DNA from: a virus
Lineage: Duplodnaviria > Caudoviricetes
IMG/VR virus record: IMGVR_UViG_3300028591_000082
DNA length: 64,000 bases
Strand: one strand, 5' to 3'
In this document: positions 5,884-63,677 of the stretch, piece by piece
How the letters are laid out: each line of letters starts with the position of its first letter
Position numbering within the stretch: the stretch's first letter is position 1
The notes under the pieces: generated by a model
What the model saw: the letters and a program-made list of their open reading frames with translations, nothing else
What the model was told of the DNA's origin: nothing
Database searches by the model: none
Position numbers and translations under genes: made by a program

Positions 5884-6633
5884 ATGTTATTATCAATTGT
5901 AATACCATTCTGCGACAATGATTATAAGCTCCTTGATAGAGCTATAAATTCTATCAGGGAGCATATTAAATTCAATGATTATGAAATTGTTGTTGTAGAT
6001 AATAGGGAAGAAAAAAAAGAAGAAAAAATCTCATTAGAAAACATAAAAATCATTTCAAAAGGATATAATTTTTATACATTTGAAAGTAGAAGGTTTGGGT
6101 TTCAAAATTCTACTGGTAAGTTTATTTGGAATTTTGATGCTGATGATGAAATGATTGGTGATTTGTTTGAAGAAGATATTAAAGAAGATTATGAGTTTCT
6201 TCAAATGTATTATTTGCATGATGAAAAAACTAGACCAAAACCAATTCCACTTTTAAAAAGATACAACCCATCATTATTTGGGCCATGCGTTTGGTCTAGA
6301 TTATATAGAAGAGATTTGTTGGAAAAGATTTATACAAGATTAGAAAAACCAATAATAGTACCAAAATTTGAAGACAGAATTCTTTTTGACTTTGTGCTAT
6401 CTTATAATCCAAAATATGAATATATAGAAAGACCAATTTATATGTACAACCATTCAGTTTCTACAACTAATACAAAACTTGTAGAAAGGGTTGACAAAAT
6501 TGGAATAGGCGGATACGATTATCCTTATGAAGTTTTAGGTAAACCTAATGCTGCAGAAGATTTAAAAAGAAGAGTAGGAATTATATGTCAAAATTTGAAA
6601 AGGAACAGACGTTTCAATACCCAGATGTGTTGA
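5884..6633 (+). CDS. Glycosyltransferase family 2
   Basis: LSIVIP...EIVVVDN...R..G...G.FIWNFDADD...VWSRLY...ED GT-A motifs. Confidence 0.85.
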   Translation: MLLSIVIPFCDNDYKLLDRAINSIREHIKFNDYEIVVVDNREEKKEEKISLENIKIISKGYNFYTFESRRFGFQNSTGKFIWNFDADDEMIGDLFEEDIKEDYEFLQMYYLHDEKTRPKPIPLLKRYNPSLFGPCVWSRLYRRDLLEKIYTRLEKPIIVPKFEDRILFDFVLSYNPKYEYIERPIYMYNHSVSTTNTKLVERVDKIGIGGYDYPYEVLGKPNAAEDLKRRVGIICQNLKRNRRFNTQMC

Positions 6634-7373
6634 TAGCTGGATATGGTATAGTTGGAAAACATTTAAAAGAAGAATTTCCATTTGCAAAAACTTACGATCC
6701 AGACAAAGGTCAAAAAGCAGATTATTTTAGACCACCAAAAGATACTTATGATATTGCATTTATAGCAGTACCAACCCCAAACGATGAACACTTTTTTTGT
6801 AATACTTCATATGTTGAAAAAGCAATAGAAGAAATAGATGCAAAGATTTATGTTATAAAATCTACAGTACCTCCAGAAACAACTTCTAAGCTTTCTGCTA
6901 AATATGGGAAAACAATATTGTTTTCACCAGAATATTATGGTAATACACAGTTTGCTTTAAAGCCAGATTTTGTAATTATTGGTGGAAATTTTAAAGCTTA
7001 TCACGAAGTAAGACAATTATATGAGCTTATTAAATCAGCAGACTTTAAATTTTATCATTGTAGTTCTACAGAAGCAGAGATTATTAAATATATGGAAAAT
7101 TCTTTCTTGGCAATGAAAGTGATTTTCTGCAATCAATTTAAAGATATAGCAGATCTTTATGGTGTAGATTATGATAGAATAAGGGATGGATTTATTCTCG
7201 ATAAAAGAGTTGGTGAATCTCATACTTTTGTGTTTGATGATTACAGAGGATATGATAGCAAATGCTTAAATAAAGATATTCCAGCTTTTTCAAGTGCCGT
7301 TAAAGAAAAAGGATTTAATAAACAATTTATAATGGATGTTGTAGAAAACATAAATGATGGTTATAGAAGTTAA
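6585..7373 (+). CDS. ugd: UDP-glucose/GDP-mannose 6-dehydrogenase (short viral type)
   Basis: GYGIVG, FIAVPTP, IKSTVPP, FSPEY, AEIIKYMENSFLAMK, GYDSKCLNKD. Confidence 0.88.
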   Translation: MSKFEKEQTFQYPDVLIAGYGIVGKHLKEEFPFAKTYDPDKGQKADYFRPPKDTYDIAFIAVPTPNDEHFFCNTSYVEKAIEEIDAKIYVIKSTVPPETTSKLSAKYGKTILFSPEYYGNTQFALKPDFVIIGGNFKAYHEVRQLYELIKSADFKFYHCSSTEAEIIKYMENSFLAMKVIFCNQFKDIADLYGVDYDRIRDGFILDKRVGESHTFVFDDYRGYDSKCLNKDIPAFSSAVKEKGFNKQFIMDVVENINDGYRS

Positions 7374-9911: not shown

Positions 9912-10568
9912 ATGACAGAAATTAAATATGCTACAGTAAAAAGAGATTATAAAGAAGATGAAAAAGTTTACTTTGCAGATGAAAAACTTAGAGGTGAACT
10001 TGACAAAAAACAAAAAAAAATAACTGTTGGAAGAGGTCTGAGGCTAAATGGAAATGTTCTCTCACTTGCAGACAATATTGGTGGTGGAAGCAACTTTAAG
10101 TATTTTACAATTGATGGCTTAAAAGCTAGTGGATTATATGAAGGTTCAGAGCCTTTTGAAGGAGCTGAGTGTTCAAAGCTTACTGTAGAGTGTGCTTATG
10201 TAGGAAACCCAAAAGTTTATATTGACTATATAGATGCTGGAGATTTTTCTTCTGATAGTTATAACAACAGATGTTTTAGTTTTATTAATGAAGTTAGTGA
10301 TGAAGAAGTAAATATGCAAAAAGCAAGAGAAGTGCTAGCTACTCTTGGAGATAGTGGCGAAGACTTTTTCTGCATACTTCCAACAAGAATAATATCTGGT
10401 GAATTTATAAGAATAATGCATGGTATCCAAGATGATGGATTTGAAGCATGTATTTTTGCGCCATGGTATTATGATTCTTATGGTGTTAAGCAAACAAGAG
10501 AAAGTGTACAACCATCAAGAGATAAATCAGAAATTATACCAGTTATTTGGGAACAACTTGCAAATTAA
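9912..10568 (+). CDS. Module B protein
   Basis: MTEIKY...VYFADEKLR.ELDKKQ.KITVGRGL. Confidence 0.55.
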   Translation: MTEIKYATVKRDYKEDEKVYFADEKLRGELDKKQKKITVGRGLRLNGNVLSLADNIGGGSNFKYFTIDGLKASGLYEGSEPFEGAECSKLTVECAYVGNPKVYIDYIDAGDFSSDSYNNRCFSFINEVSDEEVNMQKAREVLATLGDSGEDFFCILPTRIISGEFIRIMHGIQDDGFEACIFAPWYYDSYGVKQTRESVQPSRDKSEIIPVIWEQLAN

Positions 10569-11296
10569 TGATTCTTAGTGTCGTAATACCTTTTTGCGAT
10601 AATGATTATCAATTCCTTAATGGAGCAGTTAGCTCCATTAAGGAACATATTAAATTTGATGATTATGAAATTATCGCAGTAGATAACAGAGAAAAAAATA
10701 AGTCTCAAATAGATATTAACAATGTTAAAATTGTTTCAAGCGGGCACAACCTTGGCTGCTTTGATGGACGTCGCTTTGGCGTTTCACATAGCCAAGGCGT
10801 TTTTATCTGGAACTTTGATGTAGATGATTTAATGGTCGGAGACCTTTATAGAGAAGATATTAAAGAAGATGCTGATGTTATGCAAATGTATTATATTTAT
10901 AACACAGGCCCAAGATATGATCAAAAAATGTTCCCTGTAGCATATGGTGTTAACGTTTGGTCTCGTTTGTATAAAGCAGAGATTGTTAAAAATTTTTATG
11001 CCAAATTAGAAAAACCTATAAAAATTTTTATGAGAGAAGATTCTTTATTATTTGATGCTGTGTGCGGAACAGCTAAAGTCTGGAAATATATACCAAAAGT
11101 TATATATGAGTACAACTTTAAGAATGCTAGGTTTAATAAATATAACAAAGGTAACAACAAAAAATCTAAAATGTCCGAGCAGGAAGCAAAAGAAACCTAT
11201 GAGGGTTATAAATATATTTATAATATCTTAGGGACACCAGAAAAAGCAGATGTTTTATTCAAAAGAGTAAAAGAAATAACTGAACGAGGATACTAG
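10568..11296 (+). CDS. Glycosyltransferase family 2 (paralog of 5884)
   Basis: LSVVIPFCDNDY...IKEHIKFDDYEI..VDNRE...FIWNFDVDD...VWSRLY; TAATG overlap start. Confidence 0.85.
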   Translation: MILSVVIPFCDNDYQFLNGAVSSIKEHIKFDDYEIIAVDNREKNKSQIDINNVKIVSSGHNLGCFDGRRFGVSHSQGVFIWNFDVDDLMVGDLYREDIKEDADVMQMYYIYNTGPRYDQKMFPVAYGVNVWSRLYKAEIVKNFYAKLEKPIKIFMREDSLLFDAVCGTAKVWKYIPKVIYEYNFKNARFNKYNKGNNKKSKMSEQEAKETYEGYKYIYNILGTPEKADVLFKRVKEITERGY

Positions 11297-16677: not shown

Positions 16678-17346
16678 ATGATTAAAGCGCAAATAATTAT
16701 AGAAATGACAGATGGTCAGCTTTATACATATGTAAATAGCCATCTTGCAGATAAAGCAGAAACAGATAATAATGGAAATTATATATTCAAAGGAGAGCCT
16801 GGAAAATACTATATGTATACAGGTGAAGATGGGGATGAATATGATGACCAAGATTCTGCTGGAATGGCAAAAGCAGATTACGAAGCACTTTTAAGTGATG
16901 CTGCTGGAACATCTGGATACCTTCATTTTCCTGATGGATATGATGAACTTCTTATTCCAAGAGATAAAGAAATAAACAATGAAGATGCTTTTACAAGAGT
17001 AAAGCTCCCAAGAGAAAATGTAAAATCAATTAAACTTGTAGAAACACATGTTGTTTATCCTTTTGGTAGACCAAGTACAGATTATGTTGCAAAACCTCCA
17101 AAAATGGGAGAACTTTATTCTATTCCAAAAGAAGTTAAAACAACTTATGACAGATATGTTTCAATGCCAGTTGTAAAAGAAAATAAGGTAAATAATTTTA
17201 ATGATTTTGAATTTGTTTACTACAGAAAACCAAAAACAGAACAGTGGATTGAAATTGATAATGAAAACTTTACAGTTGATTTTGACTGCGAACTTGTTGG
17301 TGAAATAAACGGAATTAAAGGCGGGGTTTCATTTTATAAGGCTTAA
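16678..17346 (+). CDS. Hypothetical late protein
   Basis: AGGAG SD and AAGTTAAT upstream. Confidence 0.6.
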   Translation: MIKAQIIIEMTDGQLYTYVNSHLADKAETDNNGNYIFKGEPGKYYMYTGEDGDEYDDQDSAGMAKADYEALLSDAAGTSGYLHFPDGYDELLIPRDKEINNEDAFTRVKLPRENVKSIKLVETHVVYPFGRPSTDYVAKPPKMGELYSIPKEVKTTYDRYVSMPVVKENKVNNFNDFEFVYYRKPKTEQWIEIDNENFTVDFDCELVGEINGIKGGVSFYKA

Positions 17347-17349
17347 TAG

Positions 17350-17940
17350 ATGAGTTTTTATTCTTCTATAATAAATTGGATGAGGGGGCTTAGAAAAAAC
17401 AATGGCTCTCTTTATGTAGATGGAAACAAATATGTTTTCGGTGCTATCGTATCTGGTAGCTATCAAAATGCCAAGACAGATAACAATCCAACATTACTCT
17501 GTCTTGGCAATTATTTTGACCAAAAAAATAATAATTGGAAAGTTCACGGAATTCAATTTCATCATTTAAATCCATACGATTTGCAATGGTTATTACAACA
17601 ATTAATTATTTGGAAAAAGAATGGAGCAATTATAGACCCACGCTCTTTTTATAATTACTTGAAAAGTTCACATAAAGAAATAATAGATGCTTACAGAACA
17701 TACCATACAGAACTTACTTCTTTTAAAGTAATATCTCCAGGAATTTCAAATGTTTCTTTTGAAAATTGTTCTGCTCCGTTTGATTCTAGAGATGGTATTA
17801 TAAATCAATTTAATCAATTTATAAGAAATCCATCTGAACTTTCTAACTATCATCAAGCTTCTGAAGTACAACAGCAATATGATGTCCAAGAACTCAATAT
17901 GCGTGTTGCAGAAACAATTAACCAAAGAAAACTATGGTAG
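17350..17940 (+). CDS. Possible T4 gp2-like DNA end protector
   Basis: D..P..L......HGIQFHHL.P...AYRTY pattern resembles gp2 G.NLHYLP...K.Y. Confidence 0.45.
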   Translation: MSFYSSIINWMRGLRKNNGSLYVDGNKYVFGAIVSGSYQNAKTDNNPTLLCLGNYFDQKNNNWKVHGIQFHHLNPYDLQWLLQQLIIWKKNGAIIDPRSFYNYLKSSHKEIIDAYRTYHTELTSFKVISPGISNVSFENCSAPFDSRDGIINQFNQFIRNPSELSNYHQASEVQQQYDVQELNMRVAETINQRKLW

Positions 17941-18324
17941 CTCAGCTTCAACATCTTTAATCAAATTGGTGTGTTCTTTAAAGAACGGTTCTTTACTAAG
18001 AAGCTCTTCTTCGTCAGTTGTTCTTTTTATAAGACATTCAATAAGTCTAAAAATAAATAATCTTTTTACATACCTTTGTGATTGCTTTAATGTTTTATTA
18101 TAGCGATTATCAAAAGCTTCTTTCTTCTCAAGATAATCATCTTCTCCAACATGATCTCTTATCCAAGCACAAATACAGTCTTGATATTTTTTGATAAAAG
18201 ATGTAGTGCCTTTTGTTATTACTAAATTGTATTTTAAGAATTTTAAATAATATTTTTTAAATAAATAAATAGATATTGCAATAACCACAAACGCAATTAT
18301 TGCAACTGCTATACTTTTTTCCAT
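17932..18324 (-). CDS. Hypothetical protein with N-terminal TM helix
   Basis: Hydrophobic N-terminus; sigma70 promoter upstream. Confidence 0.55.
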   Translation of the reverse strand: MEKSIAVAIIAFVVIAISIYLFKKYYLKFLKYNLVITKGTTSFIKKYQDCICAWIRDHVGEDDYLEKKEAFDNRYNKTLKQSQRYVKRLFIFRLIECLIKRTTDEEELLSKEPFFKEHTNLIKDVEAELP

Positions 18325-18341
18325 ATTTTTTCCTTTTATTT

Positions 18342-18370
18342 ATTATACTATAAACTTTAGTATAAGTCAA
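18342..18370 (-). promoter_or_regulatory. Sigma70-type early promoter (similar ones near 29317-29345, 30356-30384, 44550-44578, 45559-45587, 49621-49649, 57909-57937 on -, 33014-33041 on +)
   Basis: TTGAC(T/A)-N16/17-TATAAT. Confidence 0.75.
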
Positions 18371-18452
18371 TAAAAAGGCTGGCGATAGTTTGCCAGCCAC
18401 AACTTTTTTATTTATGCCACAGGTGAGAAACCCACTCAAACCTCACCAGGCT

Positions 18453-19301
18453 CTACTGTAAGAGCGCTAATACACTTTGAGATTGTGAGTTTGCTTGACT
18501 AAGCATTGCTACAGCAGACTGACTCAAAATCTGATTTTTTGTATATTCAACCATTTCCTGAGCAATATCTGCATCACGAATTCTTGATTCAGCAGCTTGA
18601 GTATTCTCTGCGGCTACATTGATTCCTTTCTGTGCCATTTCCATTCTGTTCTGGTAAGCACCAAGATCAGCACGCTGTTTGTTAACATTTTTCAATGCTT
18701 CATCAAGAGTAGCAATTGTTAAATTTGCTTCATCTGGTGATGAAATAGAAATTGTGTTTTCATCACTCTGTAATCCTTTAAGCCCAAGTGCTGAAGCAGT
18801 CATTGTTCCAATATATGCTCTTATGTTTTGATCGCAGTTTGCACCTACTTGGAACTGCATTACAGTATCAGACTCTCTTGAGAATTTACCAGTAAGCAAT
18901 GACATTCCATTAAACTGAGCAGAAGAAGCAATTCTGTCTACTTCAGCTACAAGCTGACTTACTTCTACCTGAATTTGCATTCTGTCTTCGTCTGAGTAAA
19001 CACCATTTGAAGCCTGAACTGCAAGTTCACGAATTCTCTGAAGAACATCTGTTGTTTCTGAAAGATAACCTTCTGCTACCTGTACGAATGAAACAGCATC
19101 TCCAATATTTCTTGAAGCCTGATTAAGACCTCTAATCTGAGATCTCATTTTTTCAGAAACCGCAAGACCGCTGGCATCATCACCAGCTTTGTTAATTCTT
19201 TCACCACTTGAAAGTTTTGACATTGAGTTCTGTAAATTTGCGGCATTAATGCCTTCTTGGCGTGCTGCAAACATACTAGATAAATTGTGATTTATAATCA
19301 T
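18453..19301 (-). CDS. flaB: Flagellin, spirochete FlaB-type core protein
   Basis: MIINHN...[30 protein letters not shown]...[10 protein letters not shown]...[11 protein letters not shown]...[15 protein letters not shown]...VLALLQ; 282 aa, no D2/D3. Confidence 0.96.
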
Positions 19302-19305
19302 ATTA

Positions 19306-19323
19306 ATGCGCCTCCTTGCGCAT
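19306..19323 (-). promoter_or_regulatory. CsrA-type hairpin containing the flagellin SD
   Basis: ATGCGC-AAGGAG-GCGCAT: 6-bp stem with ANGGAN loop. Confidence 0.65.
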
Positions 19324-19327
19324 AATT

Positions 19328-19355
19328 ATTATCGGATTTTTTTGTGATAACTTAA
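19328..19355 (-). promoter_or_regulatory. Sigma28 (FliA)-type promoter for flagellin
   Basis: TTAA-N16-CCGATAAT versus consensus TAAA-N15-GCCGATAA. Confidence 0.75.
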
Positions 19356-19552
19356 ATACTTTTACTTCCATTACTTTTTCCAAACCAACCATCGCCAGAA
19401 CCAGTGGCAATACCATTCCATTCTAGCTTTCTAGTTAATTTGCTTCCACATTTACTGCAGATTTGTTTATGTTTTACTTCGTCATATTCATTTATTGGAA
19501 TGTCTTTTACTTCTTCGTTATCGCATTTACTGCAAATAAATGTGTACTCCAT
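19352..19552 (-). CDS. FmdB-like zinc-ribbon protein
   Basis: YTFICSKC...CSKCGS.L.R......GSGDGW. Confidence 0.7.
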   Translation of the reverse strand: MEYTFICSKCDNEEVKDIPINEYDEVKHKQICSKCGSKLTRKLEWNGIATGSGDGWFGKSNGSKSI

Positions 19553-19553
19553 A

Positions 19554-20102
19554 TTATTCTTCCTTTCCTATGTATGCAAGTGCTCTTTTTCTGTTTGCAT
19601 GTACTTTATCATAGTTAGGATAATCAATTTTATTACTTCCTCTTGAATGAGAATATATCTCAGGGAAGAAATAGCACATTGAACGAATTGTGAAAAAATC
19701 ATAAAGTGCAAGATCTTTATCTTTTACTTCTGGAATTGTTTCTGCTCCAGATGTTTCAGCAGCTTCACGATTTTTTAAAGCTCTTTCGAGTGCAAGTTTA
19801 ATTCCAACTGCAGGAATATCTCCGTCTTTATTTGATTTATATGCTACTCCAATATAAACCTTGTTATCTTTTCCCTTAATTGAAACCATTGTTCCACGAG
19901 GTCTGCTTCTTTCTGTTTGGAGTTTTTTACCTGATGAGTCAAGTTCTTTTCCAATGTATCCATCTCTGATACGAATAGAAACATACTTTTCTCCAGAAGC
20001 TCTAAAATCTTTCGCAAACTTAATTGCTTCATCACGAGCCTTTATTCTTGCTTCGCGTTCTTCTGCAGCTTTCTTCTTAGCTGCTTCAAGTTTTTCATTC
20101 AT
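19554..20102 (-). CDS. Hypothetical protein (paralog of 51271..51774)
   Basis: IRDGYIGK...RPRG motif. Confidence 0.6.
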   Translation of the reverse strand: MNEKLEAAKKKAAEEREARIKARDEAIKFAKDFRASGEKYVSIRIRDGYIGKELDSSGKKLQTERSRPRGTMVSIKGKDNKVYIGVAYKSNKDGDIPAVGIKLALERALKNREAAETSGAETIPEVKDKDLALYDFFTIRSMCYFFPEIYSHSRGSNKIDYPNYDKVHANRKRALAYIGKEE

Positions 20103-20496: not shown

Positions 20497-20961
20497 CTAG
20501 TTATAAAGCTTTAGGTTTCCAGTTATTGGATCAACCAAGCTAGAATAACAAGGTCCGATTGCAAGACAAGTTTTTGTTGGAACTCCGTTAAAACAAGTAT
20601 GTCCGTTATCTGTAATAAGACATACATTTAATTCAGCTTCTTCTGCTTTGTTATAAACATCTAACAATTCTTCTTCTGAATCAACGCAAACACAAATTTT
20701 TGTAAATTCGCCAGCAAGCCAATCTTTTGTAGCAGAATCAGCATATGCATTTTTTCTTATTTTATAAGCATATACATCTAAATGAAAATCTGTTTCTTCT
20801 AAACGAGAATCATACAATGCCTTAATTACTGCTCCAACAGCGGCATGAGAAGCTTGTGCAGCAATTTTTCCACGAGGCATTTTTAAATCTTTACGAACTA
20901 CTATAACCATTTTTGGTTTATCTTCTGATTCGTCTACTGGTACTTTCCATTCGTCACTCAT
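20497..20961 (-). CDS. pth2: Peptidyl-tRNA hydrolase Pth2
   Basis: KMVIVVRKDLKMPRGKIAAQASHA...KIC...ITDNGHT...T.TCLAIGP...ITG.LKL. Confidence 0.92.
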   Translation of the reverse strand: MSDEWKVPVDESEDKPKMVIVVRKDLKMPRGKIAAQASHAAVGAVIKALYDSRLEETDFHLDVYAYKIRKNAYADSATKDWLAGEFTKICVCVDSEEELLDVYNKAEEAELNVCLITDNGHTCFNGVPTKTCLAIGPCYSSLVDPITGNLKLYN

Positions 20962-49654: not shown

Positions 49655-50200
49655 TTATTGTTCGATCAACCAAGCATCAGTAAGTGAAATTCTTCTGTAC
49701 TCTCCGTTTTTGTTCTTATTTTTGTCAGTTATATAACTGCCATCTTCACTTAAGAAGTAACCGCCAAACTGCAAAAAATCTTTATTAAATCTTTCAGAGA
49801 AAGTTCTATAAAGACTATTTACATGTGATTTGTATTCATTAAGAGTAAGCCTCTTTTTGAAAATTCTGTCTTTTGGTACATAAGCAAATCTTATTTTGTC
49901 TTCGTTAGATTTAAAATCATATATGCTTTGACGAGGTAAAAATTCTTCATAATCATTTTTAATCTTTTCAAAGCTTAAAGGAAAAAATTCTTTAAGCATT
50001 TCAATTTCAAGACCAACATAAATCATAACATTTGCAAAATAGTTAAAATTTTTTGGTTCCGCTTTATTGAAAACTTTAGATTTTATTTTTTTTATTATTG
50101 TTCTTTTTTTAAAGAAATCTTGATCGTTTATTTCTATTCCAAAAGAACTACCAAAAGTTTTTACTTTATCACAATATGGTTTATAAACTATTTTCTTCAT
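49655..50200 (-). CDS. Hypothetical protein
   Basis: ORF in operon. Confidence 0.5.
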   Translation of the reverse strand: MKKIVYKPYCDKVKTFGSSFGIEINDQDFFKKRTIIKKIKSKVFNKAEPKNFNYFANVMIYVGLEIEMLKEFFPLSFEKIKNDYEEFLPRQSIYDFKSNEDKIRFAYVPKDRIFKKRLTLNEYKSHVNSLYRTFSERFNKDFLQFGGYFLSEDGSYITDKNKNKNGEYRRISLTDAWLIEQ

Positions 50201-51014
50201 ATTCCATTATCTCGCAAAATTTTTTAGATGATATTACTGGAATTCCTAATTGCTTTGCTTTTACCATTTTAGAAGATGTTGAATCTATATCATCAGAAAC
50301 AACGAAACTTGTTTTAGAAGATACAGAAGACGAAACCTTATGTCCTCTGCTTTCTGCTATTTCAGAAAGTTTAGAACGCGGGAAACAACCAGCACCAGTA
50401 AAACAAAATGTATAAGAATTATCAGTAGACTTTTTCTCAATGGTTTTTACACCAAAGATATCTATTGCTTTTTTTATTTTTTCTTTGTTATTTTTTATAA
50501 ACTCAACGAATGAAGAAGAACTGATCTCTGCAAATCCATCAAAATTCATAAAATCTTTTTCTTTATATGTGAGTAGCTCTTCTATGGGGATGTTATCAAA
50601 TACTGCAAGTTTTTTAACATCAAAACCGTCTGCATCAAATATTGCAAAAAGTTTTGAGTTTTCTAGTGGGACAATCTTTTCTCTTGTGGCGTTTATTATT
50701 TTTTCGCCATTTACCCCACCAGCACAGACTTTCACTTCGTCTATAAAATCTTTTGTTGGATTTTTACAATTTTCTGAAAATCTTAATATATTATAACCTG
50801 CTTTAGTAATTTTGTCAATAAAAGCGGGTCCACCACCTTTTATATCAAGTACATCAAAAAACCTTTCAAATTGATGTTTCAACTTTTGTTCGCAATCTGG
50901 ATAAGGACAAAAAATAGTACCAGACGATTCGTCTACAACAAAGTCTGCTCCACATACAGGACATTTTTCTGGAATATGCCAATTATGCTTTTTATTTAAT
51001 TCAGAAACAACCAT
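50181..51014 (-). CDS. ligA: NAD+-dependent DNA ligase, C-terminal part (Zn finger, HhH, BRCT)
   Basis: PEKCPVCG...FCPYPDC...LDIKGGG; FCFTG...R..L....G.KVSSSVSSKT..VV...SSK..KA..LGIP. Confidence 0.88.
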   Translation of the reverse strand: MVVSELNKKHNWHIPEKCPVCGADFVVDESSGTIFCPYPDCEQKLKHQFERFFDVLDIKGGGPAFIDKITKAGYNILRFSENCKNPTKDFIDEVKVCAGGVNGEKIINATREKIVPLENSKLFAIFDADGFDVKKLAVFDNIPIEELLTYKEKDFMNFDGFAEISSSSFVEFIKNNKEKIKKAIDIFGVKTIEKKSTDNSYTFCFTGAGCFPRSKLSEIAESRGHKVSSSVSSKTSFVVSDDIDSTSSKMVKAKQLGIPVISSKKFCEIMEYEENSL

Positions 51015-53522: not shown

Positions 53523-54608
53523 TTAATCTATTATTTTTTCAACTTTAGGTATTATTTCTCCTCGTTTTGTTATCATGGCATGTTTACCAATTTCAACCCC
53601 AAGTCTTTCCATAATATTTACATTATGTAATGATGCTCTTGAAACTGTAGTTCCATTAAGTTCTACTGGCTCAATTATTGCAACGGGTGCCAATATACTA
53701 CCCTTGAAACTCCATTCTATGTCTATTATTTTTGAAATAGCATAATCGAGATCAAATTTAATTGCAAAGTTCTTTAATGGAGTAACTCTACTTAAATCTT
53801 CGTAATCAACTTTTTGAGATTTTGCTACAATTCCATCAATTGGGTATTGAAGCTTGTCTCTTGTTTGAGAAACTTCTTTTCTCCATTCTATCATTTCTTC
53901 AGCAGAAGAAACTTCTTTAAATGTTGGAACTGTAAATCCATTATTTATAAGGAATAAAAGTTTATCCTTTTCTGTTTTGTCTGCAAAATAATCGTTAAAA
54001 ACATCATAAGCAATAAAATTTAAATCTTCACAGCCATCACCATCAAGTCTTTTCATTATACCTGCGGCAGCAGCTCTTTGATTTTTCATTTGCTTTGAAT
54101 ATTTTTTATTGAATGTTTCGTTAGACATATATACTTCACCACGAATAAATCCAGAAAATGGCATACCATTTTCAAGAACTATAGGGTTTGAATTTTTTCT
54201 AAATGGAATTTTTATAAAGTTTTTGGTCATGTCAAAACCGTTTGTTGCGTTTCCTCTTGAAATTACAAGAGATAAACTACCATAATCACAACAGAGTAAT
54301 TGACCATTTCCGTCAATTTTTAATTCGAGAAGATATTTATTATTTCCTAGCTTTTTAAATATATCAAATATTTCTTTTTCGTTCTGACATTTTTTCAAAG
54401 TTCCCATTGTAACTGGTAACTTCTTTTTTTCAAAACCTTCAATATCGCGAACATTATCAATAACTGTATCAAGTAATGGATTATTTGGATCGAGTGCTCT
54501 AAGTTCTGCTATCAATTTATCATATTCGACATCAGAAATTATTTCTCCTCCATCATAATATTCTTCATTACATTTTTTTATTTTTTCTTCGAGTTCTTTT
54601 ATATTCAT
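53523..54608 (-). CDS. ligA: NAD+-dependent DNA ligase, N-terminal part (Ia, adenylation, OB)
   Basis: YY....ISD.EYD, ELKIDG, SRG, IRGEV, IDGIV, AIKF, PVEL.GTTVSRASLHN, RGEIIPKV. Confidence 0.92.
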   Translation of the reverse strand: MNIKELEEKIKKCNEEYYDGGEIISDVEYDKLIAELRALDPNNPLLDTVIDNVRDIEGFEKKKLPVTMGTLKKCQNEKEIFDIFKKLGNNKYLLELKIDGNGQLLCCDYGSLSLVISRGNATNGFDMTKNFIKIPFRKNSNPIVLENGMPFSGFIRGEVYMSNETFNKKYSKQMKNQRAAAAGIMKRLDGDGCEDLNFIAYDVFNDYFADKTEKDKLLFLINNGFTVPTFKEVSSAEEMIEWRKEVSQTRDKLQYPIDGIVAKSQKVDYEDLSRVTPLKNFAIKFDLDYAISKIIDIEWSFKGSILAPVAIIEPVELNGTTVSRASLHNVNIMERLGVEIGKHAMITKRGEIIPKVEKIID

Positions 54609-57962: not shown

Positions 57963-59033
57963 CTAACTAATGGTTATTATATTTTTACCATTTTTCTTAG
58001 AGTTATATAATAATTCATCTGCTTTCTTTACTATATTTTCATTTGACTCAAAATCAGTAATTCCTATGGAAACTGTTGCTTCAAATCCAAGTTCATTAAC
58101 CATTTTCTGTAGGAATATTAATTGTTTTAATTCCAAATATTTTTTAAGTTCTTCTTTAACAAAATGAGATAAAACAACAAATTCGTCTCCGTGAATTCTG
58201 TATAAAACACAATGTTTTCCAGAAAAAGATTCTGCAAATTTTATTAAAGTTTTATCTCCGATATCATGCCCATATGTGTCATTTATTGATTTAAAATCAT
58301 CTATATCAATATAAGCAATTGACTTATAATCAATTTCTTTTATATCATTCAAAAGTTTTACTTCGTTAAATAAATTTGTAAGATGGTCATACATAAGTTT
58401 ATTACTTGCATTATCAGCATCTATTACAGATTCAACTACCTTTTCTGATATTATATAAATAAGTTTTTGTATTTCTTTGCAAGTAAAGTACATTGCTATA
58501 TAAATAGAAAGAACTATACTACTTATAAATATGTAAACTTTTGGATTTGAAGGGTATGCACTTAATACTTTAAATTTATGCATAAGTACTTGATAAGTTG
58601 TATATATTATTATAAGCAATATACCAGCCATAAAATTTTTAAAAAGTGTTTTCTTATCAAATGGTATTAATATAATTATTTGAGCTAGTACAGTAACTAT
58701 AAGAAAATCAAATCTTATTGTAAAAAAACAATAGACCGCACAAGCAAATAAGTAGTATGAAGAGAGTATATCTATTTGTTTGTTTATACTATTAGCGTTT
58801 TTATTTAGATACGACGAAACGAAATACCCAGTAAAATTCAACAAAGCTGGAGTAGCCGCAATAAATATTTCATATGGCTCACCTCCATTGTTCATAATTG
58901 TAATACCTATAAATATTTCAACAATACTTATTATACTTACAACAATTAAAAGAGCTTTGTAGAAGTTATCTATGTATTTTTTTTTGAATTCTTGAGTAAT
59001 TTTTTCTTTTATTTTTAAATGGTTAAATTGCAT
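57963..59033 (-). CDS. Membrane-anchored GGDEF-domain protein with HGDEF variant
   Basis: About five TMs; DHLTNLFN, IDIDDFKSINDTYGHDIGD, RIHGDEF, TVSIG, ADELLY..K.NGKN. Confidence 0.9.
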   Translation of the reverse strand: MQFNHLKIKEKITQEFKKKYIDNFYKALLIVVSIISIVEIFIGITIMNNGGEPYEIFIAATPALLNFTGYFVSSYLNKNANSINKQIDILSSYYLFACAVYCFFTIRFDFLIVTVLAQIIILIPFDKKTLFKNFMAGILLIIIYTTYQVLMHKFKVLSAYPSNPKVYIFISSIVLSIYIAMYFTCKEIQKLIYIISEKVVESVIDADNASNKLMYDHLTNLFNEVKLLNDIKEIDYKSIAYIDIDDFKSINDTYGHDIGDKTLIKFAESFSGKHCVLYRIHGDEFVVLSHFVKEELKKYLELKQLIFLQKMVNELGFEATVSIGITDFESNENIVKKADELLYNSKKNGKNIITIS

Positions 59034-63146: not shown

Positions 63147-63677
63147 CTAACTGGCAAAAACTTGATAAGCCAATTTCTTGGTTTGTTCCGACAAGTCTCT
63201 TGCCATAACTAAGTCTGAAGTGTTTTTAAGCATACGTACATATGCTTTGTCCTGAGGTTGGTCGTTTATATTGTATAACATATCTGCAAGCTTAACAAAA
63301 AGAGCATCTTCGGAAATGCGAGTAAGTTTCTCGCTCATATATGCTTCTTTGCCAAGTTTCTCTACGTCAAATTTCGAATTTGTAAGTTCCCAAACCATTT
63401 TAGCAACATTGTCACCAAAAATAGTTCTGAGTTCCAATGAAGATGTTTCAGTATCTTCAAGCGTGTCATGAAGTAAGGCGGCATTTATCTGATCGATAGT
63501 TCCACCATTTTCAAGTACAATCATAGCAACACCTTTTGGGTGAACAAAATATGGCAGCCCAGAACCTTTTCTTACGGCTCCAGTCTGTTTATGTTTGTAC
63601 TTTGCGAAGGCATATGCAGCCCTACACTCAATTGGAAAGTCTGCCATTTTGATTCTTTGAAAAATTGTCTCATACAT
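63147..63677 (-). CDS. Stand-alone RelA/SpoT-type HD hydrolase (Mesh1/SAH-like)
   Basis: RKGSGLPY..HP..VA, AALLHDTLEDT, FG..VA..V..LT, VKLAD...N. Confidence 0.88.
   Translation of the reverse strand: MYETIFQRIKMADFPIECRAAYAFAKYKHKQTGAVRKGSGLPYFVHPKGVAMIVLENGGTIDQINAALLHDTLEDTETSSLELRTIFGDNVAKMVWELTNSKFDVEKLGKEAYMSEKLTRISEDALFVKLADMLYNINDQPQDKAYVRMLKNTSDLVMARDLSEQTKKLAYQVFAS

Follow-up and report, generated by a model that had tools for sequence, protein, structure and literature searches.

A FlaB3-type flagellin gene under selection in huge phages, with a putative host-type class III control region

Why should a phage carry the gene for a flagellin? The question is raised by flaB, a gene that lies among phage genes in a 64,000-nucleotide stretch of DNA (the window, throughout this text) from the tailed-phage record IMGVR_UViG_3300028591_000082 of IMG/VR. 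An earlier note, made from the sequence alone, had described the gene as an intact spirochete flagellin that retained the regulatory signals of its host, namely a promoter for the flagellar sigma factor FliA (sigma28) and a hairpin for the translational regulator CsrA. It had proposed three uses for the product: sequestration of FliW, by which CsrA would be freed, incorporation into the periplasmic filament, or an effect on immune signalling.

The analysis reported here finds that flaB is a full-length flagellin of the FlaB3 type, phage-borne and under selection. Its product is read as a filament subunit that passes through the class III and CsrA-FliW checkpoints of the host and that keeps or remodels the flagella of the infected cell, a reading to which a probability of roughly 0.55 is assigned. 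The earlier interpretation has stood in part: the gene is indeed phage-borne, intact and selected, its promoter resembles a mapped Treponema promoter, and motif and hairpin recur among divergent relatives. The idea that host signals were retained, the FliW sponge and the immune role are not supported.

A full-length FlaB3-type flagellin carried by phages

The protein matches both flagellin families of Pfam along nearly their entire profiles, Flagellin_N (PF00669) with an E-value of 9.7e-43 over positions 1-137 of 139 and Flagellin_C (PF00700) with an E-value of 1.2e-25 over positions 2-86 of 86, and it has no D2/D3 insert, in keeping with the length of about 280-290 residues of spirochete core flagellins. 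These full-length matches, in what is real phage context, bear out the description of an intact 282-residue flagellin amid phage genes, and the two protein motifs that the earlier note had quoted are both present. The best match among solved structures is PDB 10PP, which according to its depositors is the unsheathed wild-type filament of Treponema denticola made of FlaB3, and the protein aligns end to end with the solved Treponema flagellins. Each of five Treponema genomes compared holds three flaB paralogues. Identity to the phage protein is 70-75% for the FlaB3-type paralogue, encoded by the second gene of a flaB1-flaB3 tandem, 65-68% for the FlaB1-type paralogue, encoded by the first gene of that tandem, and 64-66% for the FlaB2-type paralogue, which stands at a separate locus. 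The diagnostic columns 66, 149, 151, 178 and 206 of the phage protein follow FlaB3, and its identity to Treponema species representatives does not exceed 76%.

About 20 copies of flaB in phage context were found, on contigs of 50-590 kb from many samples, and they form one clade inside Treponema FlaB3. FlaB proteins of 84-90% identity lie on many large contigs, every one of those inspected being phage-like: a Gp23 capsid gene, a radical-SAM gene and a dUTPase gene adjoin flaB in L094 and L121-L126, L097 shares with the window a PTH2 gene (79% identity) and a small open reading frame (ORF), and the L096 copy sits among ORFans on a contig of 592 kb. Copies at 70-84% identity were met on twelve viral contigs of IMG/VR, the longest measuring 386 kb, and the GenBank phage collection yielded no close flagellin, only unannotated fragments of 35-54% identity. 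The phage-context copies are monophyletic with a support of 98 in a FastTree phylogeny of 166 sequences. In an IQ-TREE phylogeny that included FlaB2, the phage clade has a support of 94 in the Shimodaira-Hasegawa-like approximate likelihood ratio test (SH-aLRT) and lies near the base of the FlaB3 clade, itself supported at 99. Because the phage clade is monophyletic and placed inside FlaB3 near its base, the trees suggest that a FlaB3-type gene was captured once, long ago, and has since diversified in huge phages. The two questions that the earlier note had raised about the history of the gene, whether it is nested in Treponema and whether related phages possess it, are thereby answered in the affirmative.

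The tail sheath of the window, used as a probe for close relatives, had no match in IMG/VR, nor any in four flaB-carrying IMG/VR phages; kinship of the carrier phages is therefore shown, via shared neighbours, for only the L094 group and L097. One contig of the clade, L071 (JAZNWZ010000130.1, 306 kb), had been binned as 'Candidatus Fimenecus sp.' and carries a phage-clade flaB followed by a same-sized flaA-like gene. It groups with IMG/VR phages and is probably a misbinned jumbo phage.

If flaB were a passive passenger, with no part to play in the phage and brought in by recent transfer from a host or by chimeric assembly, two observations would be readily accommodated. The flagellin matches among GenBank 'phage' sequences are mostly unannotated fragments of uncertain origin, and the copy in the relative L005, a 386-kb IMG/VR phage, carries a 1-nucleotide (nt) frameshift after codon 43 (L005 10120-10135), the remainder being open and 84% identical. 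The frameshift may reflect a very recent loss of the gene, or else a mistake in the assembly. Yet a chimera at the gene borders, which the earlier note had named as a danger to its claim, is excluded by L093, a 3.2-kb contig from an independent sample in which the gene order is the same. L093 is collinear with window positions 16759-19963 over 3205 nt, at 98.6% identity and with no gaps, and has the same five neighbours around flaB. All 12 of the differences within flaB are synonymous, the promoter and leader show none, and the neighbour genes have 0-3 amino-acid changes each.

Recent transfer is likewise at odds with the evidence, as the closest host genes are only 76% identical and the monophyletic phage copies occur on more than 20 phage-context contigs from many samples. 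Within the phage clade, the pairwise ratio of non-synonymous to synonymous substitution rates (dN/dS) is 0.06-0.22, with dS at about 1 or above and saturated, which is the signature of purifying selection. Between the window and L094, FlaB is 89% identical, compared with 39-54% for SbcC, SbcD, dUTPase and a 182-residue protein. Furthermore, the GC content at third codon positions (GC3) of the phage flaB genes is 0.16-0.38 and tracks the overall GC of each phage (0.30-0.37), while that of host flaB3 averages 0.45. This drift toward phage composition argues for a long residence of flaB in phages. A passenger without a role is thus extremely improbable, and the earlier argument against a passive relic holds, given the single clade, the low dN/dS with saturated dS, the drifted GC3 and the conservation of key residues.

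Residues and motifs were counted over 12 distinct phage flaB copies or loci. Invariant in all 12 copies are Q88, R91, E92 and D106, which belong to the longitudinal contacts identified in FlaB, R91 and E92 lying in the polymerisation contact (PMC13439194). That contact falls in the very segment which the earlier note had linked to a TLR5 epitope, an idea that nothing supports. The O-glycosylation sites S115, S126 and T137 are equally invariant, and site 166 is T or S; FlaB3 is reported to be O-glycosylated at S115, S126, T137 and T167 and to have no serine at the position of FlaB1 S152 (PMC13439194). Position 151 is Q in 12/12 phage copies. The same constancy is seen for N233 (...AAEN...), the counterpart of the asparagine that FliW needs in order to bind (T. 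pallidum N237, B. subtilis N255, B. burgdorferi N287; PMC12327847), so that the C-terminal FliW-binding region is indeed kept, as had been claimed. Domain by domain, the conservation of phage FlaB mirrors that of host FlaB3. Relative to host FlaB3, all 12 phage copies carry the clade-specific substitutions L16E, S19N, N26S and F220M.

Control elements around flaB

Upstream of flaB, the arrangement TTAA-N16-CCGATAAT that the earlier note had reported can be read directly in the window (Table 1). Its hexamers are identical to those of PflaB2, the mapped sigma28 promoter of T. denticola, with −35 TTAA and −10 CCGATAA (PMC9481697). CCGATAA occurs only twice on the two strands of the 64 kb, one occurrence being the flaB promoter, and a scan called no consensus sigma70 promoter upstream of flaB. 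The pattern T[TA]A[AT]-N14-17-[CT]CGATAA is found no more than 80 nt upstream of flaB in six of the 12 phage loci (the window, L094, L001, L002, L003 and L007), against a background of 0.039 per kb in the same loci. The spacers are unrelated among these loci, and the hexamers are constant, including the extended CGATAAT. Five more contigs of the L094 group have TAAAGT-N14-GCCGATAA or GTCGATAT before flaB. Taken together, these elements display the hallmarks of a sigma28-type promoter, with a TAAA or TTAA −35 and a GCCGATAA-like −10 some 15-16 nt apart, and suggest that flaB would be transcribed by polymerase carrying FliA. In L094 and L121-L126, within the 60 nt before flaB, the promoter spacer itself forms a GC-rich hairpin of 8 bp, TCGGCAGA-GAAA-TCTGCCGA, with a run of T behind it, and a terminator and the flaB promoter would therefore overlap in these contigs.

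Other window genes use consensus TTGACA-N17-TATAAT promoters. In addition, four genes are preceded by TTGCACCCTG (22241, 47787, 56055 and 56337 (-)) with TATAAT about 22 nt further on, a combination that looks like a phage-specific promoter class. A third motif, AAGTTAAT, has 12 copies in the window (for example at 240, 7367, 11331, 16193, 23825 and 33372), all of them about 25 nt or less before a gene start; although its frequency in the window is no higher than chance, it is probably a late promoter or a start-site element. The flaB gene fits none of these three classes; its AAGTTATC lies 45 nt from the ATG and has two mismatches.

It is nonetheless conceivable that a functional flagellin is transcribed by the programme of the phage itself, either from an AAGTTAT element (a variant of AAGTTAAT) or from a weak sigma70 promoter, TTTAAG-N17-GATAAT, with the leader hairpin acting as a 5' stabiliser instead of a CsrA site and the resemblance to a sigma28 promoter being fortuitous. 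The proximity of AAGTTAAT to 12 gene starts lends this some substance, as does the overlap of AAGTTATC with the −35; moreover, GATAAT within the −10 matches the sigma70 hexamer at 5/6 positions, and the promoter spacer of the L094 group doubles as a terminator hairpin. However, at 45 nt before the ATG AAGTTATC is beyond the range of its class and two positions off, and the sigma70 scan calls no promoter at flaB. It would also be hard to explain why T[TA]AA-N16-[GT][CT]CGATAAT appears in five independent phage lineages with unrelated spacers, and why the phage elements match the host flaB1 promoters, TAAAGT-N14-GCCGATAT, even in the extended −35. Transcription by a phage programme is consequently regarded as very unlikely.

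The predicted transcript would begin at or near a hairpin that displays the Shine-Dalgarno sequence in its loop. The hairpin starts five bases past CCGATAAT, and the ATG follows seven bases past it. As the earlier note had stated, its six base pairs can be read in the window, and they fold at −8.4 kcal/mol (z = −2.6; 4 of 200 shuffles were equally good). In the L094 group, TACCC-AAGGAG-GGGTA occupies the same place, with two compensatory pair changes and the loop AAGGAG kept. The form with the Shine-Dalgarno sequence in the loop is present in the window, the L094 group, L006 and L007, with different stems, and L006 and L007 possess a second, long hairpin with AAGGA or AGGA in its loop. When hairpins no more than 80 nt upstream were examined in four gene sets, a GGA-in-loop hairpin was present in 7/12 phage flaB leaders, compared with 16/154 other phage genes bearing a Shine-Dalgarno sequence, 70/70 host flaB1 leaders and 7/78 host flaB3 leaders. 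These observations are consistent with a CsrA-type GGA-in-loop site at or near the 5' end of the mRNA.

Downstream, flaB is followed by a predicted intrinsic terminator, a feature absent from the earlier note, in which six of the seven pairs are G-C and a T-run, TTTTTATT, follows. The next gene has its own sigma70 promoter, matching at 11/12 positions. With a promoter and a terminator of its own, and a separate promoter for the gene that follows, flaB therefore constitutes a self-contained unit.

Comparison with host genes reveals that these signals were not simply retained. The coding sequence is of the FlaB3 type, yet none of 78 host flaB3 genes has the sigma28 motif within 200 nt upstream, and GGA hairpins there are at background level. 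Host flaB3 sits behind flaB1 in tandem, and in T. denticola the tandem is a single operon. It is host flaB1 in gut and rumen Treponema that is preceded, at a distance of about 180 nt, by TAAAGT-N14-GCCGATAT; at least 45 of the 69 loci show it, many sites lying at the edge of the available stretch, and the flaB1 leaders always combine the GGA hairpin with ATTCCAAGGAGG. In host flaB2, a sigma28 motif stands some 100-125 nt upstream. Leader length is about 100-160 nt in the hosts and about 25-45 nt in the phages. Judged by sequence comparison, then, the phage cassette is a FlaB3-type coding sequence joined to flaB1- or flaB2-type control elements with a compacted leader, and a control region that was re-assembled in this way is a stronger argument for function than simple retention would be.

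One possibility is that the cassette stems from deletion of flaB1 in a captured operon. The leaders of L003 and L011 share ATTCCAAGGAG with host flaB1 leaders. Residues 1-40 of the phage protein resemble FlaB1 and FlaB2 marginally more than FlaB3, while diverged from all three, and no clear FlaB1/FlaB3 chimerism was found in the phage protein. As a separate matter, the GCCGATAT motif of host flaB1 (L013-L092) differs from the sigma70-like flaB1 promoter reported in T. denticola (PMC9481697), and control of the flaB1-flaB3 operon may thus differ between Treponema species.

Possible fates of the phage flagellin

How might such a cassette work during infection? In the favoured reading, of a phage-made filament subunit, it would act as a monocistronic unit in which a host-type class III promoter and a short leader precede the flaB coding sequence and a terminator closes it. 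Transcription by the FliA-bearing RNA polymerase of the host would be limited to cells whose export apparatus is in filament mode, and the Shine-Dalgarno sequence and GGA, displayed in a hairpin loop in the manner recognised by CsrA, would couple translation to the FliW-CsrA flagellin homeostat of the host. With the FliW asparagine, the D0/D1 contacts and the glycosylation sites all kept, the product could then be chaperoned, exported by the type III apparatus, glycosylated and polymerised at the distal tip. FlaB3 forms a late-added, unsheathed distal filament in T. denticola (PMC13439194), and a FlaB3-type subunit could therefore join existing flagella without the sheath protein. The phage would thereby keep the infected cell's organelle of motility, or remodel it, over the long cycle of a jumbo phage, a pay-off that would parallel that of Enterobacter FliC^P or cyanophage psbA.

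The regulators themselves would have to come from the host. Among window ORFs of at least 100 residues there is no Pfam match to FliW, CsrA, FliS or FliA; FliW and CsrA were also sought in the window by tblastn, with no match, and two complete relatives likewise yielded neither gene, which leaves the phage dependent on the FliW and CsrA of its host. The sigma factor of the relative G006 is no nearer to a FliA candidate than to RpoD.

A structural role is further suggested by the neighbours of flaB in a sister subclade, where a gene for FlaA (PF04620) directly follows flaB in L007 (3e-10) and L006 (1e-8), and a gene of the same size occupies the flaA position in L008 and L071. FlaA is a sheath protein exported by the Sec pathway and has no part in the FliW/CsrA circuit. 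The subclade of the window (the window itself, the L094 group, L097, L096, L011 and L001/L002) has no flaA next to flaB, and no FlaA was detected anywhere in the 64 kb by Pfam search of ORFs of at least 100 residues or by BLASTP of window ORFs against the phage loci. A 130-residue gene downstream of flaB was considered as a short FlaA and rejected, since it has an N-terminal membrane anchor and no Pfam match and is unlike the 130-residue gene of L094.

The pairing with flaA bears directly on the proposal of the earlier note that FlaB sequesters FliW and so frees CsrA to reprogramme host translation. As such a regulatory decoy FlaB would bind FliW (and/or FliS) in the cytoplasm, and CsrA would be released to repress host flagellin along with its other targets. 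Conservation of the FliW-binding asparagine and of the C-terminal D1/D0 helices would serve a decoy equally well, and the N-terminal segment, which is the most diverged and holds clade-specific changes, would fit reduced export. But the CsrA-type site lies in the leader of flaB itself, and the CsrA so freed would switch the decoy off; together with the flaA of the sister subclade, which stands outside the circuit, this is the reason for preferring a structural over a regulatory role. The invariant glycosylation sites and longitudinal contacts would be superfluous in a cytoplasmic protein, and sigma28 control would confine expression to cells that already export flagellin. A FliW sponge is accordingly considered unlikely, although it is the most probable of the alternatives.

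A second alternative keeps export and addition at the tip but makes the subunit a filament poison or shape modifier, which would alter or stop filament growth. Swimming and cell shape would then be altered or arrested, an effect that might hold the cell where it is or give large capsids space inside a thin cell, and to which a GGDEF-like protein might contribute. Such a protein is indeed encoded in the same window; it is a membrane protein of 356 residues with about five transmembrane helices, a GGDEF match at E = 1.5e-21 and the signature HGDEF, and if active it could act on cyclic di-GMP (c-di-GMP), a motility signal in spirochetes. The three substitutions in the D0 N-helix (L16E, S19N and N26S) and F220M, being common to all 12 copies, could be the means of the poisoning, and FlaB3-type filaments are unsheathed and short of one stabilising glycan (PMC13439194). 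On the other hand, the contact residues are unchanged, the domain conservation profile is that of host FlaB3, and some host FlaB2 proteins likewise have a polar residue (Q) at position 16. This alternative is quite unlikely.

Several points weigh against the preferred reading, that of a functional filament subunit provided by the phage. The sigma28 motif is missing from half of the phage relatives, and flaB of L008 and L071 looks co-transcribed with the gene upstream. CsrA dimers usually bind two GGA sites, and the window leader has a single one, whereas L006 and L007 have two. The first 30 residues are the most diverged of the protein, with 47-53% identity to any host paralogue; they belong to D0 and are presumed to contain the export signal, and L16E, S19N and N26S could alter export or polymerisation. 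The HGDEF protein, if active, would more likely damp motility. Finally, the assignment of these huge T4-like phages to gut and rumen Treponema as their hosts is itself a deduction, and the analysis covers 64 kb of a phage of about 222 kb.

A wider picture may tentatively be drawn, in which huge Treponema phages would run a motility regulon of their own. The re-assembled class III cassette would take over the growth of the periplasmic flagella at their distal end, to which some phages would add a FlaA sheath and this one the HGDEF protein, and the virus would set swimming and shape for the duration of the long jumbo-phage cycle. This is a speculative extension, to which a good deal less credence is given than to the filament subunit itself.

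Phage context and relation to known systems

The window has a GC content of about 30% and no tRNA. It encodes a tail sheath (1043 residues), SbcCD and a helicase, as well as a tail-tip domain protein, dUTPase, an HNH endonuclease, DNA and RNA ligases, a DNA methyltransferase and PTH2, and by homology to L094 it starts inside the 3' end of a Gp23-like capsid gene. The immediate neighbours of flaB are a 66-residue zinc ribbon and small ORFans. The longest recorded contig with this FlaB, of 222,619 bp, is presumably that of the window. No integrase- or TnpB-like match was found in the scanned window ORFs, and the carrier phage is presumably lytic.

Table 1. Positions of the flaB elements and of other features in the window
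Feature	Position	Strand	Description
flaB	18453..19301	-	282-residue FlaB3-type spirochete core flagellin, D0/D1 only; by Pfam, solved structure and trees
sigma28 (FliA)-type promoter	19328..19355	-	−35 TTAA (19355-19352), 16-nt spacer, −10 CCGATAAT (19335-19328); putative
Leader hairpin	19306..19323	-	stem ATGCGC/GCGCAT, 6 bp; loop AAGGAG = Shine-Dalgarno
Intrinsic terminator of flaB	18369..18398	-	GGCTGGC-loop-GCCAGCC (18398-18377), 7 pairs, then T-run; predicted
GGDEF-like membrane protein	57963-59033	-	signature HGDEF
PTH2-type peptidyl-tRNA hydrolase	20497-20961	-	E = 6e-34
Apparent DNA ligase part	53523-54608	-	
Apparent DNA ligase part	50181-51014	-	
HD_4 protein	63147-63677	-	176 residues, E = 1e-13
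Sugar-metabolism gene	6585-7373	+	
Sugar-metabolism gene	10547-11296	+	

Several of these features were noted in passing. The peptidyl-tRNA hydrolase is the gene whose 79% identical copy adjoins flaB in L097. The NAD-dependent DNA ligase seems to be encoded by two separate genes, the adenylation and OB domains being in one and the zinc finger and BRCT domains in the other; in L003, L006, L007, L008 and L071, a homologue of the BRCT part is located a few kb away from flaB. The HD_4 protein may be a phage alarmone hydrolase, its domain being of a type known from (p)ppGpp hydrolases. The two sugar-metabolism genes belong to an ORFan-rich block at 4.6-15 kb, one of them resembling a PHROG 'UDP-glucose dehydrogenase' and the other being a GT2 glycosyltransferase.

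The closest functional precedent is FliC^P of the flagellin remodelling prophage FRphi, an Enterobacter prophage flagellin that is driven by host FliA, is built into host flagella and alters motility (PMC10705468, PMC13418256). FlaB of the window resembles FliC^P in being a phage-encoded flagellin with conserved polymerisation domains, and it would resemble it also in the use of FliA. The carrier, however, is temperate in the FliC^P-TldR system and a huge T4-like, presumably lytic phage here. Since the flagella of spirochetes are periplasmic, neither escape from flagellotropic phages nor surface antigen variation is applicable. In the Enterobacter system an adjacent TldR (a dead TnpB) and its guide RNA repress the promoter of the host flagellin. 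Moreover, no TldR/TnpB-like repressor or guide RNA stands beside the window flaB, its product is without D2/D3, and its leader is of the CsrA type.

With Treponema FlaB3 (T. denticola TDE1475; PDB 10PP), the phage protein shares paralogue, length class, glycosylation sites and longitudinal contacts, but it departs from host FlaB3 in its identity of at most 76% and in L16E, S19N, N26S and F220M. Whereas host flaB3 is second in a tandem, the phage gene forms a monocistronic unit that has a promoter, leader and terminator to itself. Its promoter resembles the sigma28 promoters of Treponema flaB2 and flaB1, with −35 TTAA or TAAA(GT), a spacer of about 16 nt and −10 (G)CCGATAA/T, but unlike in host flaB1 and flaB2 the phage hairpin is right at the Shine-Dalgarno sequence and the leader is shorter. 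The phages of the window subclade share the FlaB clade of the FlaB + FlaA phages L006 and L007 but have no adjoining flaA.

A literature search found no report of a flagellin in jumbo, Treponema or spirochete phages, and the new points are the assignment to the FlaB3 paralogue, the re-assembled control region and the subclade without flaA. To our knowledge, all flagellins demonstrated in phages until now come from temperate phages of enterobacteria, in which it is the exposed filament surface that matters. In the present case an entire clade of huge phages maintains, under strong selection, a core subunit of a flagellum that is internal and periplasmic, with apparent checkpoint signals that its donor gene lacks. 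The gene is also a practical host marker, by which many uncultured jumbo phages of gut and rumen may be tied to Treponema. If the subunit is incorporated, the virus would maintain or rewire the organelle of motility and cell shape, and it would offer a natural handle on sigma28, on CsrA-FliW and on the sequential assembly of FlaB proteins in the genetically difficult Treponema.

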